Shown here: piece by piece, positions 7,166 through 15,191 of the stretch
Layout: every line of letters begins with the position of its first letter
How positions within the stretch are numbered: the stretch's first letter is position 1
Origin: Mycobacterium leprae TN
Lineage (GTDB): Bacteria > Actinomycetota > Actinomycetes > Mycobacteriales > Mycobacteriaceae
Reading direction: 5' to 3'
NCBI RefSeq assembly: GCF_000195855.1
Contig: NC_002677.1
Span: 1,140,001 to 1,172,000, forward strand
DNA: 32,000 nt
Made by a program: the position numbers and the translations under genes
Notes under the pieces: generated by a model
Told to the model about the DNA's origin: nothing
Database searches by the model: none
The model's input: the letters and a program-made list of their open reading frames with translations, nothing else

Positions 7166-7708
7166 TCACAGCACTAGCAGCATGCGGGAGTTGCCCAGGG
7201 TATTCGGTTTTACATAGCTCAGGTCCAAGAACTCGGCGACCCCGATATCGTATGACCGGCACATCTCTTCGAACACCTCGGCGGTTACCGGGGTGCCCTC
7301 TATCTCGGTGAACCCGTGCTGGCTGAAGAATTCGGTTTCGAAGGTCAACACGAACAACCGTTCCAATTCCAGCTTGCGAGCGACTTCGAGTAGTCGGTTC
7401 ACGATTGTGCCGCCGACACCGTGGCCGGTCATGGCGGGGTCGACGGCGACGGTGCGGATTTCGCCGAGGTCGGACCACAGCACGTGCAGCGCACCGCAGC
7501 CGACTACTTTGCCCGGTATGTCGGGGTGTTCGGCCACCCAGAATTCCTGCACGGCTTCATAGAGTGTCACGAGGTTCTTTTCCAGCAGGATCTTTCCCGC
7601 GTAGGTGTCGACGAGTTGTTTGATCGCCGGGATATCGGAGGTTCGTGCGCGCCGGACCACCGGCAGATAATTCTGTGAATTTTTGGTCACGGCTAACAGT
7701 ATCGACAT
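7166..7708 (-). CDS. argA: GNAT-family acetyltransferase, short single-domain N-acetylglutamate synthase type (Rv2747-like)
   Basis: The ORF is 180 aa. It has GNAT motif A (IRTVAVDPAMTGHGVGGTIVNRLL) and reads close to my recollection of M. tuberculosis Rv2747. It converges on ftsK with a 9-nt gap. Confidence 0.8.
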   Translation of the reverse strand: MSILLAVTKNSQNYLPVVRRARTSDIPAIKQLVDTYAGKILLEKNLVTLYEAVQEFWVAEHPDIPGKVVGCGALHVLWSDLGEIRTVAVDPAMTGHGVGGTIVNRLLEVARKLELERLFVLTFETEFFSQHGFTEIEGTPVTAEVFEEMCRSYDIGVAEFLDLSYVKPNTLGNSRMLLVL

Positions 7709-7747: not shown

Positions 7748-8356
7748 GTGTCGGGGCAGCCTCCAACGGGTCCGATGGTAGATTGCGTCCGTATTGCCAA
7801 CCTCGCCAATATCCTGACTGGCTTGCGGCTGATGTTGGTCCCCGTTTTTTTGGTTGCCTTGTTCGCTGGGAATGGCCACGAAATCGTCGGTCGGATAGCG
7901 GCTTTCGTGATCTTCACAGTTGCCTGCATTACCGATCGGTTAGACGGTTTGCTGGCCCGCCGCTACGGCATGGCGACTGAATTCGGTGCGTTCGTCGATC
8001 CGATCGCGGACAAGACCCTGATCGGGGCGGCGCTGATCGGACTTTCGATGCTTGGTGACCTGCCATGGTGGGTCACGGTGCTTATCATGACTCGCGAGCT
8101 TGGAGTGACTTTATTGCGGTTGGCTGTTATTCATCGCGGGGTCATTCCGGCAAGTTGGGGTGGCAAACTCAAGACTGTGGTCCAGGCAGTAGCGATCGGT
8201 CTGTTCCTGCTGCCTTTGACGCAACTGTCAGTGCCGTTCCACGTGGGTGCAGCAGTGGTGATGGCAGTTGCGGTCGTGCTTACGGTGGTCACGGGTGTCG
8301 ACTACGTGGCTGGGACAATCAGGGCCGTCAGGGGAGTGCACCAGACAGCCAGCTGA
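7748..8356 (+). CDS. pgsA: CDP-diacylglycerol--glycerol-3-phosphate 3-phosphatidyltransferase (PgsA3-like)
   Basis: The ORF is 202 aa, has a GTG start and is multi-TM. It carries the CDP-alcohol phosphatidyltransferase motif DRLDGLLARRYGMATEFGAFVDPIADK. Confidence 0.9.
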   Translation: MSGQPPTGPMVDCVRIANLANILTGLRLMLVPVFLVALFAGNGHEIVGRIAAFVIFTVACITDRLDGLLARRYGMATEFGAFVDPIADKTLIGAALIGLSMLGDLPWWVTVLIMTRELGVTLLRLAVIHRGVIPASWGGKLKTVVQAVAIGLFLLPLTQLSVPFHVGAAVVMAVAVVLTVVTGVDYVAGTIRAVRGVHQTAS

Positions 8357-8419
8357 TCACGGGAGCCATAGCAGGCCATCTGCGTTCATCTAGTGACTGA
8401 CCGGATGAGGTGGAGCGCG

Positions 8420-8754
8420 ATGGTGTCATTTAGTGCGTGAAGTCATGGGCAACGTGTTGTGCCGGATCAGGGCCGCACGCTGCGTGAGATGTTGGATTCC
8501 GCGTGCGTGAGTCTCGGTTATCTATTCGGAGGTTGAGCCCGGCTGGAAGGCGCCTTCCAGCAAGTTGCTCAACACGATTTGCGACGCGTTGTAGGTGGCT
8601 GCTGTCAGAGTTGCTTATCGACGTCGGTGAACGAGTGGCGCATACGTAACGTGCAGCCTGGACCGTACTAGATAGCGTGCCAAGCGGCTTCATCATCGAC
8701 CGGTCAGCACCAAGGTCGTCAATTCTCCCCGGTGGGGTCGTTGCAGTGGCGTAA
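8420..8754 (+). pseudogene. clgR: clgR (XRE-family Clp gene regulator) pseudogene
   Basis: ClgR-like peptides appear in alternating frames. VREVMGNVL starts at 8433 in frame 0. DQGRTLREMLDSACVSLGYL starts at 8465 in frame 2. PSSKLLNTICDAL starts at 8553 in frame 0 and ends at an in-frame TAG (8592-8594). LLIDVGERVAH starts at 8611 in frame 1. The C-terminus PGGVVAVA is followed by TAA at 8752-8754. That makes at least 3 frame changes and 1 internal stop. Confidence 0.75.
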
Positions 8755-8890
8755 ATGCGGCCAACGTGCCGGGCCCCTCGGATAGGAGTTGCCAAAAGGG
8801 TGTGGAGATCTGCGCTTACCCGATAAATTGAGCGTTAGAGAAAGCGCAGGGTCCATCCGGCTACACAAGCAACGAAGACGGAGCTAAGTC

Positions 8891-9722
8891 ATGGTCAATC
8901 CGTTCGTGAAAGCGTGGAAGTACATCGTGGCGCTGTTCAATGCCAAGCTCGACGAGAATGCAGACCCCAAGGTGCAGATTCAGCAGGCCATTGAGGAAGC
9001 ACAGCGCACTCACCAGGAGCTGACCCAACAGGCCGCGCAGGTGATCGGCAACCAGCGGCAACTAGAGATGCGGCTCAACAGGCAGCTGGCGGACATCGAA
9101 AAGCTCCAGCTAAACCTGCGCCAGGCGCTGACGTTAGTGGACCAGGCCACTGCCACCGGGGACGTTTCTAAGGCTGCCGAGTACAATAACGGCGCCGAGG
9201 TGTTCGCGGCCCAGTTGGTGACCGCCGAACAGAGCGTCGAGGACCTCAAGACGTTGCACGACCAGGCGCTTCGTGCGGCGGCTCAAGCCAAAAAGGCTGT
9301 CGAACAGAACGCGATGGTGGCTGCAGCAAAAAATCGCGGAGCGCACCAAACTGCTGAGCCAACTCGAGCAGGCGAAGATGCAGGAGCAGGTTAGTGCTTC
9401 GCTGCGGTCGATGAGTGAGATCGCGGTGCCCGGCGATACCCCGACGCTCGACGAGGTGCGGGAAAAGATTGAACGTCGGTACGTCAACGCGCTCGGTGCG
9501 GCCGAGTTGGCACAAGGTTCCGTGCAGGGTCGCATGATCGAGATCGAACAGGCCGGTGTGCAGATGGCCGGTCATTTGCGGCTAGAGCAGATCCGCGCGT
9601 CGATGCTCAGTCAAGCTTTGTCGACGGGCGGTACGGCTGCGTTTCCCGGAGGCACACCGGCCAGTATCGCGACCAACCAAGCTAGCGACGTGCACGTTGT
9701 TGAGAAATCCCTCGGTCAGTAA
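8891..9722 (+). pseudogene. pspA: PspA/IM30-family protein (Rv2744c 35-kDa alanine-rich protein homologue) split by a +1 frameshift
   Basis: ORF 8891..9394 reads [16 protein letters not shown]...[11 protein letters not shown] and then turns into nonsense. ORF 9273..9722 is nonsense until [25 protein letters not shown]... and then runs to the stop. The two PspA-like halves join if one G at about 9320 is removed (atggtgGctgcag). Confidence 0.8.
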
Positions 9723-9759
9723 GCAACGCGGGCGGTTTGAGAATGGTGCTGAGGTGGCC

Positions 9760-10605
9760 GTGAATGTAAGCCAACGTGGGCAGTGGCGCGCGTTGATGCG
9801 GCGTGGACTGGACACCATCACCGATTTGTCCGACTTGCTCGCCAAAAAGATTAGCGTTGTGTTGGATCCGCGTGCCCGCCTGCTTCGCCGTCGCCGCCGC
9901 GCGCTGCGGTGGGGCTTGATTTTTGGTTTCGGGTGCCTGTTTTGGGGCGTGGTGACGGCGTTACTAGCGGCCTGGGGTTGGTTCACGTTGCTGCTGCAGA
10001 TCACCGGCTCCATCGCGGTTTTGCAGGCCATTCCTGCTACGTTGCTGCTGCTTCGCTACCGCTGGCTGCGGTCGGAGCCGCTGCCGACATGGCGGCCCAA
10101 CGGAGTTCGTCGATTACTGCCACCCGGTTAGGCTGCCCCACCTTCGATGTCGGAGCTGGGCGTTTCCGAACTCGGGTTCTTTTCGTTGTTGGGTTTGATG
10201 GGGCAGGGCGAAATGTTCCCTGCAGCCGAAATCCGTGATTTGACCGCCGCGGCTAACCAAATCTTGGTGGCGATGGAGGTCACTGCTGCCCAGTTGGTGT
10301 CGATAGAGCGGGTGGTGTGCTATTTTGAATCATCTTGTTTTCTCTGGTCTCCAATAAAGTAATGATTACTATTGATAATTATTATTGCGTTCACTACATA
10401 GTTGAGCGCCGGTGTCCTTAAGTAAAACGAAATCGTCACTATCGTAGCGAGGTTTATTTCTTCGACGAACCGTGTCGGTGGTTTCCGGGGTAGGGTCGCG
10501 CCGGGTTCGCAGCGGTTTTCCCGTGAAGAGCTGGCCACCGCTGCTGATTCTCTGGCCGTTTGTGCGCAGGTGTTCGACGAACTCGGCGGAATGTCGCTGC
10601 GTTAG
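9760..10605 (+). pseudogene. Rv2743c-like transmembrane alanine-rich protein pseudogene; frame kept, five in-frame stops
   Basis: From GTG 9760 a single frame reads VNVSQRGQWRALMRRGLDTITDLSDLLAKK.. through two TM segments. In-frame stops are TAG 10129-10131, TAA 10360-10362, TGA 10363-10365, TAG 10399-10401 and TAA 10423-10425. The reading ends REELATAADSLAVCAQVFDELGGMSLR with TAG at 10603-10605. Confidence 0.7.
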
Positions 10606-10611
10606 ACAGGG

Positions 10612-10953
10612 TTAGTCCTTGGGGCCCGGGCCGTAGCGCTCGATGTATGTCTGGTGGATATGGGCGTCGCACTTGCGCTTAAGTTGGTTGACGCATTCGG
10701 GGTCCAGGTTGTTGCACGCCCAGCATGTGACGTCACCATATTTTGCTTGAGTGCATTGAGTGCATGCGGGAAGTAAACGAACGGGATGAGGATCGGCAAC
10801 GTCATGCTTAAGTAAACGTTGAGTGTCGTTGGGGGCAACTAGAACGGTATGAATACCAGCACAGCCAGAATCGCGACGCGGACCATCATTTAGATGACGG
10901 CGCCCTTGCCTGGCCGAATCGTTGCCTACCCAGTCTCGCATCGAGTCGAGCAA
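10612..10953 (-). CDS. Hypothetical cysteine-rich small protein (CxxC-x10-CxxC-x6-C-x8-C C-terminus), function unknown
   Basis: The ORF is 113 aa and ends ACTQCTQAKYGDVTCWACNNLDPECVNQLKRKCDAHIHQTYIERYGPGPKD. Another frame just upstream encodes TM-like peptides (MMVRVAILAVLVFIPF*, MTLPILIPFVYF), so it may itself be frame-damaged. It might correspond to the conserved cysteine-rich protein of which M. tuberculosis keeps only a fragment near recA. That link is from memory and unverified. Confidence 0.35.
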   Translation of the reverse strand: MLDSMRDWVGNDSARQGRRHLNDGPRRDSGCAGIHTVLVAPNDTQRLLKHDVADPHPVRLLPACTQCTQAKYGDVTCWACNNLDPECVNQLKRKCDAHIHQTYIERYGPGPKD

Positions 10954-11023
10954 TTCCCATAACAGTTATAGTGAACATATTACAGCGCGTTGGGTTTCGT
11001 GCGGGTGTGTTTGTCTTTCATTG

Positions 11024-11467
11024 TTAGAACGCTGCGTTTAACGACGGGATTCTCAGCGCGACCAGGCTTCGCATGGTTGCCTTGAACAGATCGAACAAAT
11101 CAAAATAATTCCGCCACAACATGATTCGCTTATTTTGCACTTCGAAGGTGCCACAGACCCAGAATTGCATCCAAAGTGGGCCGACGATCACCGCGTCGGC
11201 GCGTTCGCAGAGCACGGCTATAGCCACGGCGGCAATTCGGTGGATCTTTATCTCAAACCCGATACAGTCTGCCATCTTACGCCACAGTGTGATCGTTTTG
11301 CTACGGCCATGGATTGTTGGCAGTCCGACGTTCTGGTAAACACGAGGTTGTCGTCCAACGTCGCGTATGCGGTTTCGTAATCCTGCGTCCTGCAGGGCAG
11401 CCAAGAAAACCTCGACCGTGCGAATGTTTTCAACACCTTGGACAGATGCCTCGGTCAGCTCAGCTAT
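11024..11467 (-). CDS. ephG: Limonene-1,2-epoxide-hydrolase-family protein (EphG/Rv2740-like); canonical start apparently lost
   Basis: The last 147 codons of the 501-aa shadow ORF read IAELTEASVQGVENIRTVEVFLAALQD...IGFEIKIHRIAAVAIAVLCERADAVIVGPLWMQFWVCGTFEV...LWRNYFDLFDLFKA..PSLNAAF. This is open and EphG-like throughout. The codon where ATG is expected is ATA (11465-11467). The nearest in-frame alternative is GTG at 11516-11518. Confidence 0.55.
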   Translation of the reverse strand: MAELTEASVQGVENIRTVEVFLAALQDAGLRNRIRDVGRQPRVYQNVGLPTIHGRSKTITLWRKMADCIGFEIKIHRIAAVAIAVLCERADAVIVGPLWMQFWVCGTFEVQNKRIMLWRNYFDLFDLFKATMRSLVALRIPSLNAAF

Positions 11468-11521
11468 GGCTACCAGCTTAGGGGAAACATGACATAACGG
11501 TGCTATGGCATGGTACACTAC

Positions 11522-12688
11522 ATGCGCGTTGCTGTGGTCGCCGGGCCAGATCCCGGGCACTCCTTTCCCGCGATCGCTCTGTGTCAGCGTTTCGCTGAAG
11601 CGGGGGACACGCCCACTTTGTTCACCGGAGTGGAGTGCGTCGATATCGCGCGGGCCGCCGGTGTCGAGACTGCCCTGCTGGACGGGCTCGTGGCCGTTGA
11701 TGACGATGTCGATGCCGGGGCTAGGATCCATCGGCGTGCTGCGCAGATGGCTGTGCTTAATGTGCCAGTGCTGCGCGACTTGGCTCCTGATCTGATAGTA
11801 TCTGACGTCATAACCGCGGCCGGTGGTATGGCAGCTGAGCTGCTGGGGATCCCGTGGATTGAACTCAACCCGCATCCGTTGTATCTGCCGTCCAAGGGTT
11901 TGCCGCCTATAGGCAGCGGACTGGCGTCCGGTGTCGGCATTCACGGCCGGATGCGAGATGCCACCATGCGGGCGCTTACCGCACGGTCTTGGCGTGCTGG
12001 CCTGCGAGAGCGGGCAGCGGTCCGGGTGCAGATTGGATTGCCGGCTTGCGACTCCGGGCCGCTGCGACGGCTGATCGCTACGCTGCCCGCGCTGGAGGTC
12101 TCTCGTCCAGACTGGCCGGCTGAGGCCGTGGTGGTGGGTCCGTTGCACTTTGAGCCGACTGATCGGGTGTTGCAGATCCCTTCCGGCTCCGGGCCGGTGA
12201 TAGTCGTGGCACCGTCTACGGCGTTGACTGGGATTTCGGGCATGGCGCAGACCGCTTTGGACGCTCTGGTGCCCGGTGACACGTTGCCATCGGGGTCGCG
12301 CGTGGTGGTGTCTCGGCTGAACGGTCCCGATCTGACGGTGCCGTCCTGGGCGGTGGCTGGGTTGGTACACCAGACGAAGCTGTTGGCGCATGCCGACGTG
12401 GTTATTTGCGGTGGCGGTCACGGGATGGTTGCCAAAACGCTGTTGGCCGGGGTGCCGTTGGTGGTGGTTCCTGGTGGCGGGGATCAATGGGAGATGGCCA
12501 ATCGAGTGGTACGGCAGGGCAGTGCGCAATTGATTCGGCCGTTGACCGCTGCGGCGCTGTTAGCTGCGGTTAATAAGGTGCTGTCGTCGCCGGATTATCG
12601 CGAGGCTGCACAACGAGCCGCCATCAGTATCGCTGGGGTTGCAGATCCGGTTCAGGTGTGCCACGAAGCGCTGGGGCTCGCCGGGTAA
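11522..12688 (+). CDS. GT1-family (MGT/UDP-glycosyltransferase-like) glycosyltransferase, Rv2739c-like
   Basis: The ORF reads MRVAVVAGPDPGHSFPAIALCQRF... and carries the GT1 C-terminal nucleotide-sugar motif VICGGGHGMVAKTLLAGVPLVVVPGGGDQWEMANRV. The ORF track starts 12 nt earlier, at 11510. Confidence 0.85.
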   Translation: MRVAVVAGPDPGHSFPAIALCQRFAEAGDTPTLFTGVECVDIARAAGVETALLDGLVAVDDDVDAGARIHRRAAQMAVLNVPVLRDLAPDLIVSDVITAAGGMAAELLGIPWIELNPHPLYLPSKGLPPIGSGLASGVGIHGRMRDATMRALTARSWRAGLRERAAVRVQIGLPACDSGPLRRLIATLPALEVSRPDWPAEAVVVGPLHFEPTDRVLQIPSGSGPVIVVAPSTALTGISGMAQTALDALVPGDTLPSGSRVVVSRLNGPDLTVPSWAVAGLVHQTKLLAHADVVICGGGHGMVAKTLLAGVPLVVVPGGGDQWEMANRVVRQGSAQLIRPLTAAALLAAVNKVLSSPDYREAAQRAAISIAGVADPVQVCHEALGLAG

Positions 12689-12710
12689 CTGATTGGGTAA
12701 GTTGGCTGGC

Positions 12711-12905
12711 GTGCGGTTGACGGAATTCCACGAGCGAGTCGTACTGCGATTCGGTGCTGCATACGGTGCCTCCGTGTTGGTTGATCACGTGCTGACTGGC
12801 TTCGACGGTCGTACCGTCGCCCAGGCGATTGAAGACGGTGTCGAGCTCCGCGATGTCTGGCGGGCATTGTGCGTCGACTTCGACGTGCCCCGCGATCAGT
12901 GGTGA
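12711..12905 (+). CDS. DUF3046-family small protein (Rv2738c-like), directly upstream of recA
   Basis: From GTG 12711 the ORF reads VRLTEFHERVVLRFGAAYGASVLVDHVLTGFDGRTVAQAIEDGVELRDVWRALCVDFDVPRDQW. Its position next to recA is conserved. The ORF track uses TTG at 12693. Confidence 0.7.
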   Translation: MRLTEFHERVVLRFGAAYGASVLVDHVLTGFDGRTVAQAIEDGVELRDVWRALCVDFDVPRDQW

Positions 12906-12941
12906 TTTCGCGGATTGCTGGGACGGCGTGTCGAGACTTGA

Positions 12942-12957
12942 ATCGAACAGATGTTCG
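12942..12957 (+). promoter_or_regulatory. LexA SOS box (Cheo-type, TCGAAC-N4-GTTCGg)
   Basis: Sequence tcgaacagatgttcgg lies about 100 nt upstream of the recA ATG. It matches the mycobacterial consensus TCGAAC-N4-GTTCGA in 11 of 12 half-site positions. Confidence 0.8.
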
Positions 12958-12988
12958 GATATTGTGGTGGTTATTCAGCGATGTCGGC

Positions 12989-13009
12989 TTGTCGGTGGCT
13001 CTCTAGTGT
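12989..13009 (+). promoter_or_regulatory. RecA-NDp-like (LexA-independent, PafBC-type) promoter motif
   Basis: Sequence ttgtcggtggctctctagtgt resembles the published tTGTCRgtg..TAnnnT motif: TTGTCGGTG, then 6 nt, then TAGTGT. The spacing relative to the consensus is not verified. Confidence 0.5.
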
Positions 13010-13055
13010 CACGTCCAACCGACCGGTACCGGTTACCGACTACAGGAGAAGTAAC

Positions 13056-15191
13056 ATGGCACAAGTCCCCGACCGTGAGAAAGCTCTCGAGCTGGCGATG
13101 GCCCAGATCGAGAAAAACTATGGCAAAGGTTCGGTGATGCGTCTCGGTGACGAGATGTGTCAGCCAATCTCGGTCATTCCGACCGGCTCCATCGCACTGG
13201 ACGTGGCTCTGGGTATTGGCGGTCTGCCGCGTGGCCGGATTGTGGAAATCTACGGTCCGGAGTCCTCGGGCAAAACTACTGTTGCACTACACGCTGTGGC
13301 CAATGCCCAGGCGGTCGGCGGTGTCGCAGCGTTCATCGACGCCGAGCACGCGCTGGAACCGGAGTATGCTAAGAAGCTCGGGGTTGATACCGATTCCTTG
13401 CTGGTAAGTCAACCTGATACCGGTGAACAAGCCCTCGAGATCGCCGACATGCTGATCCGTTCTGGCGCGCTCGACATTGTGGTCATCGACTCGGTTGCTG
13501 CGCTGGTGCCGCGCGCGGAACTAGAAGGTGAGATGGGGGACAGCTATGTCGGATTGCAAGCCCGGCTGATGAGTCAGGCACTGAGGAAAATGACTGGTGC
13601 GCTGAGTAATTCGGGAACCACGGCGATCTTCATCAACCAGCTACGTGAGAAGATTGGGGTGATGTTCGGGTGCATGAATTACTCGACCCGCGTGACTCTT
13701 GCGGACGGTTCCACTGAAAAGATCGGCAAGATCGTCAACAACAAAATGGATGTCAGGGTGTTGTCCTACGACCCGGTGACGGACCGGATTGTGCCACGCA
13801 AGGTAGTGAACTGGTTCAATAATGGTCCAGCTGAACAGTTCCTCCAATTTACTGTCGAAAAGTCCGGTAGTAACGGCAAGTCACAGTTTGCGGCGACGCC
13901 CAACCACCTCATTCGCACACCTGGCGGCTGGACAGAAGCCGGTAACCTTATTGCCGGTGATCGGGTGCTTGCCGTCGAACCACATATGCTGAGCGATCAG
14001 CAGTTCCAAGTTGTGTTGGGCTCACTGATGGGTGACGGGAACCTCTCGCCCAATCTGTGCGATCGTAACGGTGTCCGGTTCCGGTTGTTGGGATACGGCT
14101 GCAAGCAGGTGGAATATCTGCAGTGGAAGAAGGCGCTAATGGGCAACATTCGGCATACGGTGCGGGAGAATTCCATGGGCGCGAGTTTTATCGACTTCAC
14201 CCCATTGCCAGAGCTCGTCGAGCTACAGCGCGCGGTCTACCTCGGAGACGGTAAGAAGTTCTTATCTGAAGAGTATCTCAAGGCGCTGACGCCGTTGGTT
14301 CTGGCTATTTGGTATATGGACGATGGTTCATTCACAGTGGGTTCCAAGAGGGTGCAGGAACGTACCGCCGGTGGCAGCGGGCGCATTGAGATCTGTGTAG
14401 ATGCCATGACCGAAGGCACACGTGTACGTTTGCGCGACTATCTGTGCGACACACACGGCTTGGATGTGCGTTTGCGAGAAGTTGGTTCGGCCGGTAAGGC
14501 GGTGCTGGTGTTTTCCACTGCGGCCACTGCGAAGTTCCAGTCATTGATCGCTCCATATGTGGCGCCGTCCATGGAGTACAAGTTGTTGCCGCAGTTCCGT
14601 GGTCGGGGGAGCGTGACACCGCAGTTCGTCGAACCCACGCAGCAGTTGGTGCCGGCCCGCGTTCTCGATGTTCATGTCAAACTGTCTACCCGATCAATGA
14701 ACCGGTTCGATATCGAGGTTGAGGGCAATCACAACTACTTCGTTGACGGAGTGATGGTACACAATTCTCCCGAAACCACGACGGGTGGAAAGGCGTTGAA
14801 ATTCTATGCGTCGGTGCGCATGGACGTGCGTCGGATTGAGACACTTAAGGACGGTGTCGATGCGGTCGGCAACCGGACCCGGGTCAAAATCGTCAAAAAT
14901 AAGGTGTCGCCACCTTTCAAGCAGGCCGAGTTCGACATCCTGTACGGCAAGGGCATTAGCAGGGAGGGTTCACTGATCGATATGGGTGTGGAACAAGGCT
15001 TTGTCCGCAAGTCTGGATCCTGGTTCACTTATGAGGGCGAACAGCTTGGCCAGGGCAAGGAGAATGCGCGCAATTTCTTGCTGGAGAACGCCGATGTGGC
15101 CAATGAGATCGAGAAGAAGATCAAGGAGAAGCTTGGCATTGGCGCGGTCGTGACCGATGACGACATCCTGCCCACCCCCGTCGATTTCTGA
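13056..15191 (+). CDS. recA: RecA recombinase precursor (711 aa) containing an intein
   Basis: An RBS aggaga lies at 13044-13049 and the ATG at 13056. The N-extein reads [33 protein letters not shown] with Walker [10 protein letters not shown]. The C-extein resumes [23 protein letters not shown]...[11 protein letters not shown]. The ORF-track start at 12951 is a spurious upstream extension. Confidence 0.98.
13671..14765 (+). mobile_element. RecA intein (365 codons) with LAGLIDADG homing-endonuclease domain (PI-MleI type)
   Basis: This is an in-frame insertion between RecA Gly205 and Ser. It begins with Cys (tgc 13671) and ends VHN (aat 14763-14765), and is followed by Ser +1. The LAGLIDADG blocks are LGSLMGDGN (14016-14042) and [11 protein letters not shown] (14301-14333). 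Removing it restores the contiguous RecA sequence ..[17 protein letters not shown]... Confidence 0.95.

Follow-up and report, generated by a model that had tools for sequence, protein, structure and literature searches.

Remnant of a ClgR-PspA-PspM (Psp-like) envelope-stress operon in Mycobacterium leprae TN and its probable order of decay

The clgR-pspA-pspM(-pspN) operon of Mycobacterium tuberculosis reportedly corresponds to Rv2745c-Rv2742c, as in the account of Datta 2015 and the model of Manganelli and Gennaro. The literature on M. tuberculosis and M. smegmatis describes ClgR-PspA-PspM as a system that keeps the membrane potential and aids survival under envelope stress. SigE induces clgR, and ClgR, a helix-turn-helix (HTH) activator, switches on the operon and the clp protease genes; PspA is the membrane-stabilising effector and restrains ClgR, and PspM is the membrane partner that recruits PspA. 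The SigE-dependent promoter, ClgR autoregulation and the partner switching of PspA, ClgR and PspM are known from literature on intact systems. The present analysis concerns the corresponding locus in a stretch of 32,000 nucleotides (nt) from M. leprae TN (NC_002677.1, positions 1,140,001 to 1,172,000), here called the window; TN coordinates are window coordinates plus 1,140,000. The locus is best explained as what reductive evolution has left of a dead clgR-pspA-pspM (Psp-like) envelope-stress operon, non-functional as a system, a reading to which we assign a probability of roughly 0.93.

Compared with the M. tuberculosis operon (Rv2745c-Rv2742c; Ravi 2024), the M. leprae locus has the same gene order and orientation between pgsA3 and the EphG and glycosyltransferase genes, but all three reading frames are broken. 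Decay of the operon was already known as annotation, the pseudogenes ML0980-ML0983 having been catalogued since 2001. Williams et al. 2009 (PMC2753549) list ML0981 (Rv2744c; TN 1148891-1149719, window 8891-9719), ML0982 (Rv2743c; 1149754-1150602) and ML0983 (Rv2742c; 1150700-1150910) as pseudogenes from the 2001 annotation, report transcripts of all three in nude-mouse-derived M. leprae (Additional file 1), and tabulate two truncated products, one that starts at ATG and has 167 amino acids (aa; 61.5% of Rv2744c) and one that starts at GTG and has 125 aa (46.1% of Rv2743c); the same table gives 5 stops for each of ML0981 and ML0982. No pseudogene protein products had been seen in the proteomes cited by Williams 2009, and according to a proteomics paper, identity to Rv2744c does not exceed 26.6% for any M. 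leprae protein. The TN annotation of Cole et al. 2001, as relayed by Williams 2009, has coordinates identical to those found here and the same truncated open reading frames (ORFs) of 167 aa and 125 aa. It differs in predating the definition of the mycobacterial Psp system, with labels of just "hypothetical" or "35kd", and in placing ML0983 as Rv2742c on the plus strand, where the conserved coding frame is DUF5313 on the minus strand. In the searchable literature, no paper was found that describes the loss of ClgR-PspA-PspM from M. leprae in Psp-system terms. Three pseudogenes in a row are statistically unremarkable here, because 1,133 of the 2,747 genes in this genome are pseudogenes (Williams 2009, PMC2753549). 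The additions made here are minor: the order of decay, the open pspA of M. lepromatosis and the strand of ML0983/DUF5313.

The features of the module, all on the plus strand, are as follows.

8420-8760 (end approximate), plus: clgR pseudogene (ML0980 region; TN feature 8468-8751), placed by alignment to intact clgR genes
8798-8834, plus: conserved intergenic block 5' of pspA, candidate promoter or operator, aligning in all five species compared
8891-9394, plus: pspA pseudogene (ML0981), N-terminal frame, with 143 PspA codons, a 24-codon out-of-frame tail and TAG 9392
9319-9320, plus: G insertion in pspA, GTG-G-CTG (context ATGGTG-G-CTGCAG), a single gap column in the four-species nucleotide alignment
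9321-9722, plus: pspA pseudogene (ML0981), C-terminal frame, codons 144-276 and stop (tblastn frame 3, 9291-9719)
9754-10605, plus: pspM/Rv2743c pseudogene (ML0982), one frame from GTG 9754 to TAG 10603 with five internal stops

Intact comparators came from a scan of a genome collection with a frame-corrected PspA, from which the best 80 loci of other mycobacterial species were kept; these left out M. leprae, M. tuberculosis, M. haemophilum and M. lepromatosis. Four further loci were added through protein searches and contig look-up. Loci L081-L083 are M. lepromatosis (glycosyltransferase identical to WP_045842825), L084 and L085 are M. malmoense or a very close relative (ClgR identical to an M. 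malmoense protein), L090 is M. shinjukuense, and L091 is M. tuberculosis, which was not among the best 120 matches of the ClgR protein search and was reached through the EphG sequence of PDB 2BNG; short-read M. tuberculosis and M. canettii contigs end inside PE_PGRS47, short of the operon. Among the 80 other-species loci, ClgR is complete in a single stop-free frame at 78, PspA at all 80 and PspM at 75, with at least 4 of the 5 PspM shortfalls lying at contig ends (L010, L011, L055, L060). These counts argue that the operon, as far as the best 80 species loci represent the genus, is close to universal in it.

The gene identities proposed in the preliminary description of this DNA (ClgR, PspA and Rv2743c) are right, since intact orthologues match NF041677, PF04012 and NF047839/PF25587, respectively, and the remnants match the M. 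tuberculosis proteins. Its statement that three consecutive genes carry independent lesions is likewise borne out by alignment to intact orthologues. The clgR remnant lies between pgsA3 and pspA, where the L084 gene matches the NCBIfam model of ClgR, a Cro/XRE-type HTH activator (NF041677), with 190 bits against a cut-off of 170. By tblastn, the remnant aligns to L084 ClgR at E=1.6e-10 and to M. tuberculosis ClgR at 9.5e-9 (residues 1-98, in two frames). The gene is a pseudogene, in which the uninterrupted frame of about 112 codons that encodes the HTH domain is lost. Called against the intact genes of the M. malmoense-like L084 and M. triplex, the lesions comprise seven frame-changing indels (+1 at 8429, -10 at 8467, +1 at 8525, +1 at 8597, +2 at 8701-2, +2 at 8722-3 and -1 at 8742) and, in the reference frame, two in-frame stops (TAG 8592 and TAA 8647); the frame from the ATG at 8420 closes after 6 codons at TGA 8438. 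The earlier count of at least three frame changes and an internal TAG was thus correct, if understated.

The pspA gene spans 8891-9722 and carries a single lesion. As had been proposed from the letters alone, there is a one-base frameshift at about 9320: the extra G at 9319/9320, in codon 144, is carried by the window alone in the four-species alignment, and pspA has no other indel there. The 5' frame closes at TAG 9392, giving a 167-aa ORF, and the 3' frame is open to TAA 9720. Against L084 PspA, tblastn gives 88% identity over residues 1-143 and 74% in the second frame; against M. tuberculosis PspA, the values are 87% over residues 1-143 (frame 2) and 76% over residues 134-252 (frame 3). L084 PspA matches PF04012 (PspA_IM30) with 184 bits over residues 3-241, and all precomputed matches of the frame-corrected query carry PF04012; a search of PDB sequences with PspA had no match at E<=0.001. 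Homology to the PspA/IM30 family therefore covers the whole domain, but the added G and the premature TAG at 9392 leave no single ORF running through it.

The two halves of pspA are widespread as separate ORFs. The 167-aa ORF is identical to database entry B2235_C2_187 and occurs on 250 contigs, and a 114-aa C-terminal sub-ORF is identical to B2235_C3_214 and occurs on 249, compared with 232 and 200 contigs for neighbouring intact proteins. Independent deposits of the halves exist (AAA17271/AAA17276 and CAB08117/CAB08116). A frame-corrected 276-aa M. leprae PspA was not found among 15 billion sequences; its closest full-length relative is the PspA of M. lepromatosis at 91% identity. With the half-ORFs on about 250 contigs, the independent deposits and no full-length protein, a sequencing error is excluded as the source of the pspA lesion, and the frameshift appears to be fixed in M. 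leprae.

The pspM remnant lies directly 3' of pspA and reads in one frame throughout. The five in-frame stops proposed earlier are confirmed by position, and there are exactly five: TAG 10129 (codon 126), TAA 10360, TGA 10363, TAG 10399 and TAA 10423. Indels of -1 (10334), +25 (10353-77) and an in-frame +15 (10473-87) are also present, and the frame is kept because the first two cancel. The remnant is 62% identical to M. tuberculosis PspM over residues 1-270 in that single frame, and its conceptual product with the stops masked matches PF25587 with 158 bits, compared with 274 bits (and 226 bits for NF047839) for L084 PspM. Homology and position thus identify the gene as pspM (NF047839, PF25587), of which the uninterrupted frame of about 270 codons is lost from codon 126 on. 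The 25-nt insertion is AT-rich and occurs in both leprosy bacilli (window 10353-10377; L081 11466-11494); the 60 nt around it are 28% G+C, compared with 58% for the window.

Comparison with M. lepromatosis gives an order to these events. In both leprosy bacilli, clgR, pspM and the DUF5313 gene next to it are pseudogenes; in M. lepromatosis, by contrast, pspA is open (L081 10001-10831; WP_045842821.1; 276 codons, annotated as a functional PspA), EphG is without the frameshift pair of M. leprae, and the clgR indels are mostly others. The clgR, pspA and pspM genes do not appear in the supplements of the paper on the M. lepromatosis genome. The lesions that the two species share are, in pspM, the change of TCG to TAG at codon 126 and the +25 and +15 insertions; in DUF5313, three nonsense codons; and in clgR, a -1 at codon 109 and probably an insertion at codon 39. 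Because nonsense codons in both genes and insertions in pspM are shared, pspM and DUF5313 are placed as dead before M. leprae diverged from M. lepromatosis. The clgR gene was probably dead by then as well. The pspA gene, on the same alignments, is broken in M. leprae only, after the split.

Changes at sites invariant in four intact outgroups were counted along each leprosy-bacillus branch, with the following results (M. leprae branch, then M. lepromatosis branch).

clgR: 7.3%, 9.3%
pspM: 6.5%, 5.9%
pspA: 2.2%, 2.4%
pgsA: 1.9%, 3.5%
glycosyltransferase: 3.3%, 2.5%

On both branches, clgR and pspM change about 2-4 times as fast as the intact neighbours and pspA does not, indicating that clgR and pspM have been without constraint since the split and that this does not hold for pspA. 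Other measures point to weaker constraint on PspA. Each leprosy bacillus has 11 replacements at 178 near-invariant columns of PspA (columns at least 97% invariant in 81 other species), 5-6 of them common to both, compared with 1-3 of 178 for the glycosyltransferase and 0-1 of 74 for PgsA (0 in M. leprae). The ratio of nonsynonymous to synonymous changes (N:S) in pspA on the M. leprae branch is 6:3, whereas five genes of the neighbourhood together have 17:108 (Fisher p=0.0008). For M. lepromatosis, the pspA ratio is 6:12 and that of the neighbours 30:94, not a significant difference. Judged from these substitution patterns, constraint on PspA is relaxed in both leprosy bacilli, and pspA of M. 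lepromatosis, although open, may be less than fully functional and on its way to becoming a pseudogene. The M. lepromatosis replacements at near-invariant positions include Q212P and R214C. The relaxed selection on the module suggested in the preliminary description is supported by these rates, both by the excess in clgR and pspM and by the N:S ratio of pspA. Its wider claim that the whole module was lost stands in that all three genes are inactivated, but the decay extends past the module and the lesions are of very different ages.

A stepwise history accounts for these observations most economically. In the ancestor shared by the two leprosy bacilli, pspM and the DUF5313 gene beside it were disabled, and very probably clgR too. 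Without its regulator and partner, pspA then drifted under weakened constraint in both species with its frame still open. In M. leprae alone, the G insertion at codon 144 finally split pspA into ORFs of 167 aa and 114-149 aa, and this allele appears to be fixed. Transcripts of the pseudogenes persist, but functional ClgR, PspA and PspM can no longer be made. Complete inactivation in M. leprae would mean that the Psp response is dispensable for an obligate intracellular bacillus, and the loss fits the wider loss of regulatory and stress-response functions during genome reduction; the link to obligate intracellular life is one that we infer.

Several points weigh against a dead operon with this history. 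The pspA gene has one lesion, keeps its ATG and is transcribed, so that a truncated N-terminal PspA product in M. leprae is conceivable. At 2.2%, its total load on the M. leprae branch does not exceed that of intact genes, the N:S signal is based on 9 changes only, and the frameshift may be fairly recent. For the ancestral death of clgR, the evidence is one clear 1-nt deletion close to the 3' end and one insertion that is ambiguous, both shared; the remaining clgR indels are lineage-specific. The outgroups are more distant than M. haemophilum, the closest free-living relative, with M. haemophilum and M. uberis outside the comparison, and the rest of the M. leprae ClgR regulon lies outside the window.

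The alternative that survives best is that the loss was not specific to the module, the locus being a block of local neutral decay, a chance run in a genome with 41% pseudogenes in which gene function was irrelevant. Decay goes beyond the operon into DUF5313 and the EphG homologue, deletion has removed the FhuF_C gene, and a genome in which 1,133 of 2,747 genes are pseudogenes should contain many runs of at least three. Against this, virtually every other species sampled has an intact operon, and the stepwise order fits functional coupling, in which the regulator and the partner went first and the effector then drifted, with changes at conserved sites in both species. Nor is such decay truly exclusive of the loss of a dispensable operon, any pseudogene reflecting dispensability in the niche. 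Because the tract spans five genes and 41% of genes are pseudogenes, purely local, function-blind decay is partly true and compatible with a dead stress operon; as a sufficient explanation in its own right it is possible but not favored.

More doubtful is the proposal that PspA outlived ClgR and PspM by millions of years and still serves as an autonomous membrane protector in M. lepromatosis, while in M. leprae it is lost or persists only as a transcribed 167-aa fragment with residual activity. If it were true, the two leprosy bacilli would differ in envelope-stress capacity and would provide a natural experiment on PspA without ClgR and PspM.

That pspA is still functional in M. leprae itself, through recoding (ribosomal or transcriptional slippage) or as a split protein made from the N- and C-terminal ORFs, is very unlikely. 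The retained ATG, the frameshift as sole lesion, the low total divergence on the M. leprae branch and an A6 run 8 nt 3' of the insertion could all be cited for it, but six A residues are few for transcriptional slippage. A +1 or -2 shift would be needed within 75 nt, and inspection by eye, no search with a tool having been made, showed no known +1 slippery or stall motif there. The frameshift interrupts the single PspA_IM30 domain midway, both regulator and membrane partner are dead, and the predominance of replacements on the M. leprae branch (a near-neutral pattern) and the 11 deviations at near-invariant positions speak against a maintained protein. The transcript has been detected (Williams 2009), but no pseudogene protein is among the proteomes cited there. 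Finally, the idea that the stops and frame changes are sequencing or assembly errors or misreadings of intact genes is practically ruled out: one extra G beside other Gs is a plausible type of error, but independent cosmid sequencing and the genome project each yielded deposits with the same pspA half-ORFs, about 250 assemblies built from public read sets contain them, the published TN annotation has the same pseudogene coordinates, and clgR and pspM each have many lesions, several of them shared with another species.

A conserved intergenic block lies between clgR and pspA. At 8798-8834 it reads GGGTGGGGCGATCGGCGCCGACCCGTTAAATTGAGCG in the intact species, and in both leprosy bacilli it is retained with several substitutions at otherwise conserved positions; it may be a pspA promoter or operator.

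Around the module, the window contains, in order, ftsK, an acetyltransferase gene (minus strand), pgsA3, the clgR remnant, pspA, the pspM/Rv2743c remnant and a DUF5313 remnant (minus strand), followed by an EphG/limonene-epoxide-hydrolase (LEH) homologue (minus strand), the glycosyltransferase gene, a DUF3046 gene and recA with an intein. The flanking features are listed below.

7166-7708, minus: acetyltransferase, identical to the M. leprae proteins of strains TN, Br4923 and Kyoto-2
7748-8356, plus: pgsA3 homologue (ML0979), the intact 5' neighbour, an open ORF with 77% tblastn identity to L084 PgsA over 190/190 aa
10621-11024, minus: DUF5313 pseudogene (part of it is ML0983), found by tblastn to DUF5313, with 4 nonsense codons and 5 indels
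11024-11518, minus: EphG/LEH homologue (ML0984, an annotated coding sequence), damaged, with the ancestral ATG lost and a compensated frameshift pair
11510-12688, plus: glycosyltransferase (ML0985), the intact 3' neighbour, product identical to M. leprae CAC31366, CAR71080 and BBC16893

The reading frames of pgsA3, the glycosyltransferase (82% identity with its L084 counterpart across 388 aa) and recA are all open, as the preliminary description had said of the neighbours, but intactness does not extend to the tract between pspM and the glycosyltransferase gene, where the DUF5313 gene is a pseudogene and the EphG/LEH gene is damaged. The tract of decay thus comprises four pseudogenes and a damaged fifth gene, ML0984. 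The frameshift pair in ML0984, +1 (11385) and +2 (11343-2), leaves about 14 codons out of frame and is present in M. leprae only, not in M. lepromatosis. Its function is doubtful, and this EphG/LEH homologue may be a pseudogene that has gone unrecognised. Neither Rfam nor repeat scans had a match in 8300-11550, so nothing points to an RNA gene or a mobile element as the cause of the decay.

It had also been supposed that a fourth operon member, Rv2742c, was to be expected after pspM and had no recognisable remnant after 10605. Neither part holds. The M. tuberculosis Rv2742c-like ORF does match window 10700-11024 on the plus strand (tblastn E=4e-16), and 10700-10910 is annotated in TN as ML0983, the "Rv2742c" pseudogene. 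The same DNA on the minus strand matches DUF5313 better, across two frames (E=2.6e-24 with L084 and 6e-23 with M. tuberculosis), and the plus-strand similarity is to the portion of Rv2742c that is antisense to DUF5313. On these alignments, a DUF5313 pseudogene of the opposite strand is a better reading of ML0983 than a remnant of Rv2742c.

As for the expectation of a fourth gene, Rv2742c/PspN (PspN_N with a C-terminal DUF3046) is present solely in the M. tuberculosis locus L091; the first 86 loci (L001-L086), the 80 non-tuberculosis species loci included, are all without a second ORF bearing DUF3046, and none is called in M. shinjukuense L090. This agrees with reports that Rv2742c is specific to the M. 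tuberculosis complex (Ravi et al. 2024; a 2026 preprint). In the window, no co-oriented gene with a second DUF3046 domain follows pspM, the only DUF3046 match being the Rv2738c orthologue at 12702-12902. Since the second DUF3046 gene is confined to the M. tuberculosis locus, no operon gene would be missing from M. leprae after pspM.

The M. tuberculosis locus itself bears on how Rv2742c is to be read. There the Rv2742c-like ORF (L091 12283-13143, minus, the same strand as the operon) lies behind the PE_PGRS47 insertion and is antisense to an intact 134-aa DUF5313 ORF (L091 12787-13191, plus). Between M. tuberculosis and either M. shinjukuense or the M. malmoense-like strain, the ratio of nonsynonymous to synonymous substitution rates (dN/dS) of the DUF5313 frame is 0.17-0.21 and that of the antisense Rv2742c frame about 0.8, and DUF5313 occupies this position in M. 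shinjukuense, M. malmoense and 31 of the 80 other-species loci. This suggests that the N-terminal "PspN_N" domain of Rv2742c and the label "ML0983 = Rv2742c" may both stem from a reading of the wrong strand, and the DUF5313 reading of ML0983 would cast doubt on the N-terminal half of M. tuberculosis Rv2742c/PspN.

Two further features of the flanking DNA were seen in the comparison. Between the DUF3046 gene and recA, the M. malmoense-like strain and M. canettii have a gene with an FhuF_C domain; it is missing from M. leprae, which has about 150 nt there (window 12905-13056), and in M. tuberculosis just a 57-aa fragment is called. At M. tuberculosis L091 10682-12783, PE_PGRS47 lies between ephG and DUF5313, a 69-aa fragment that duplicates the EphG C-terminus comes after it, and the C-terminus of the Rv2742c ORF is a partial duplicate of DUF3046. 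This arrangement suggests that the PE_PGRS insertion was accompanied by a local duplication that also supplied material for the chimeric Rv2742c ORF.

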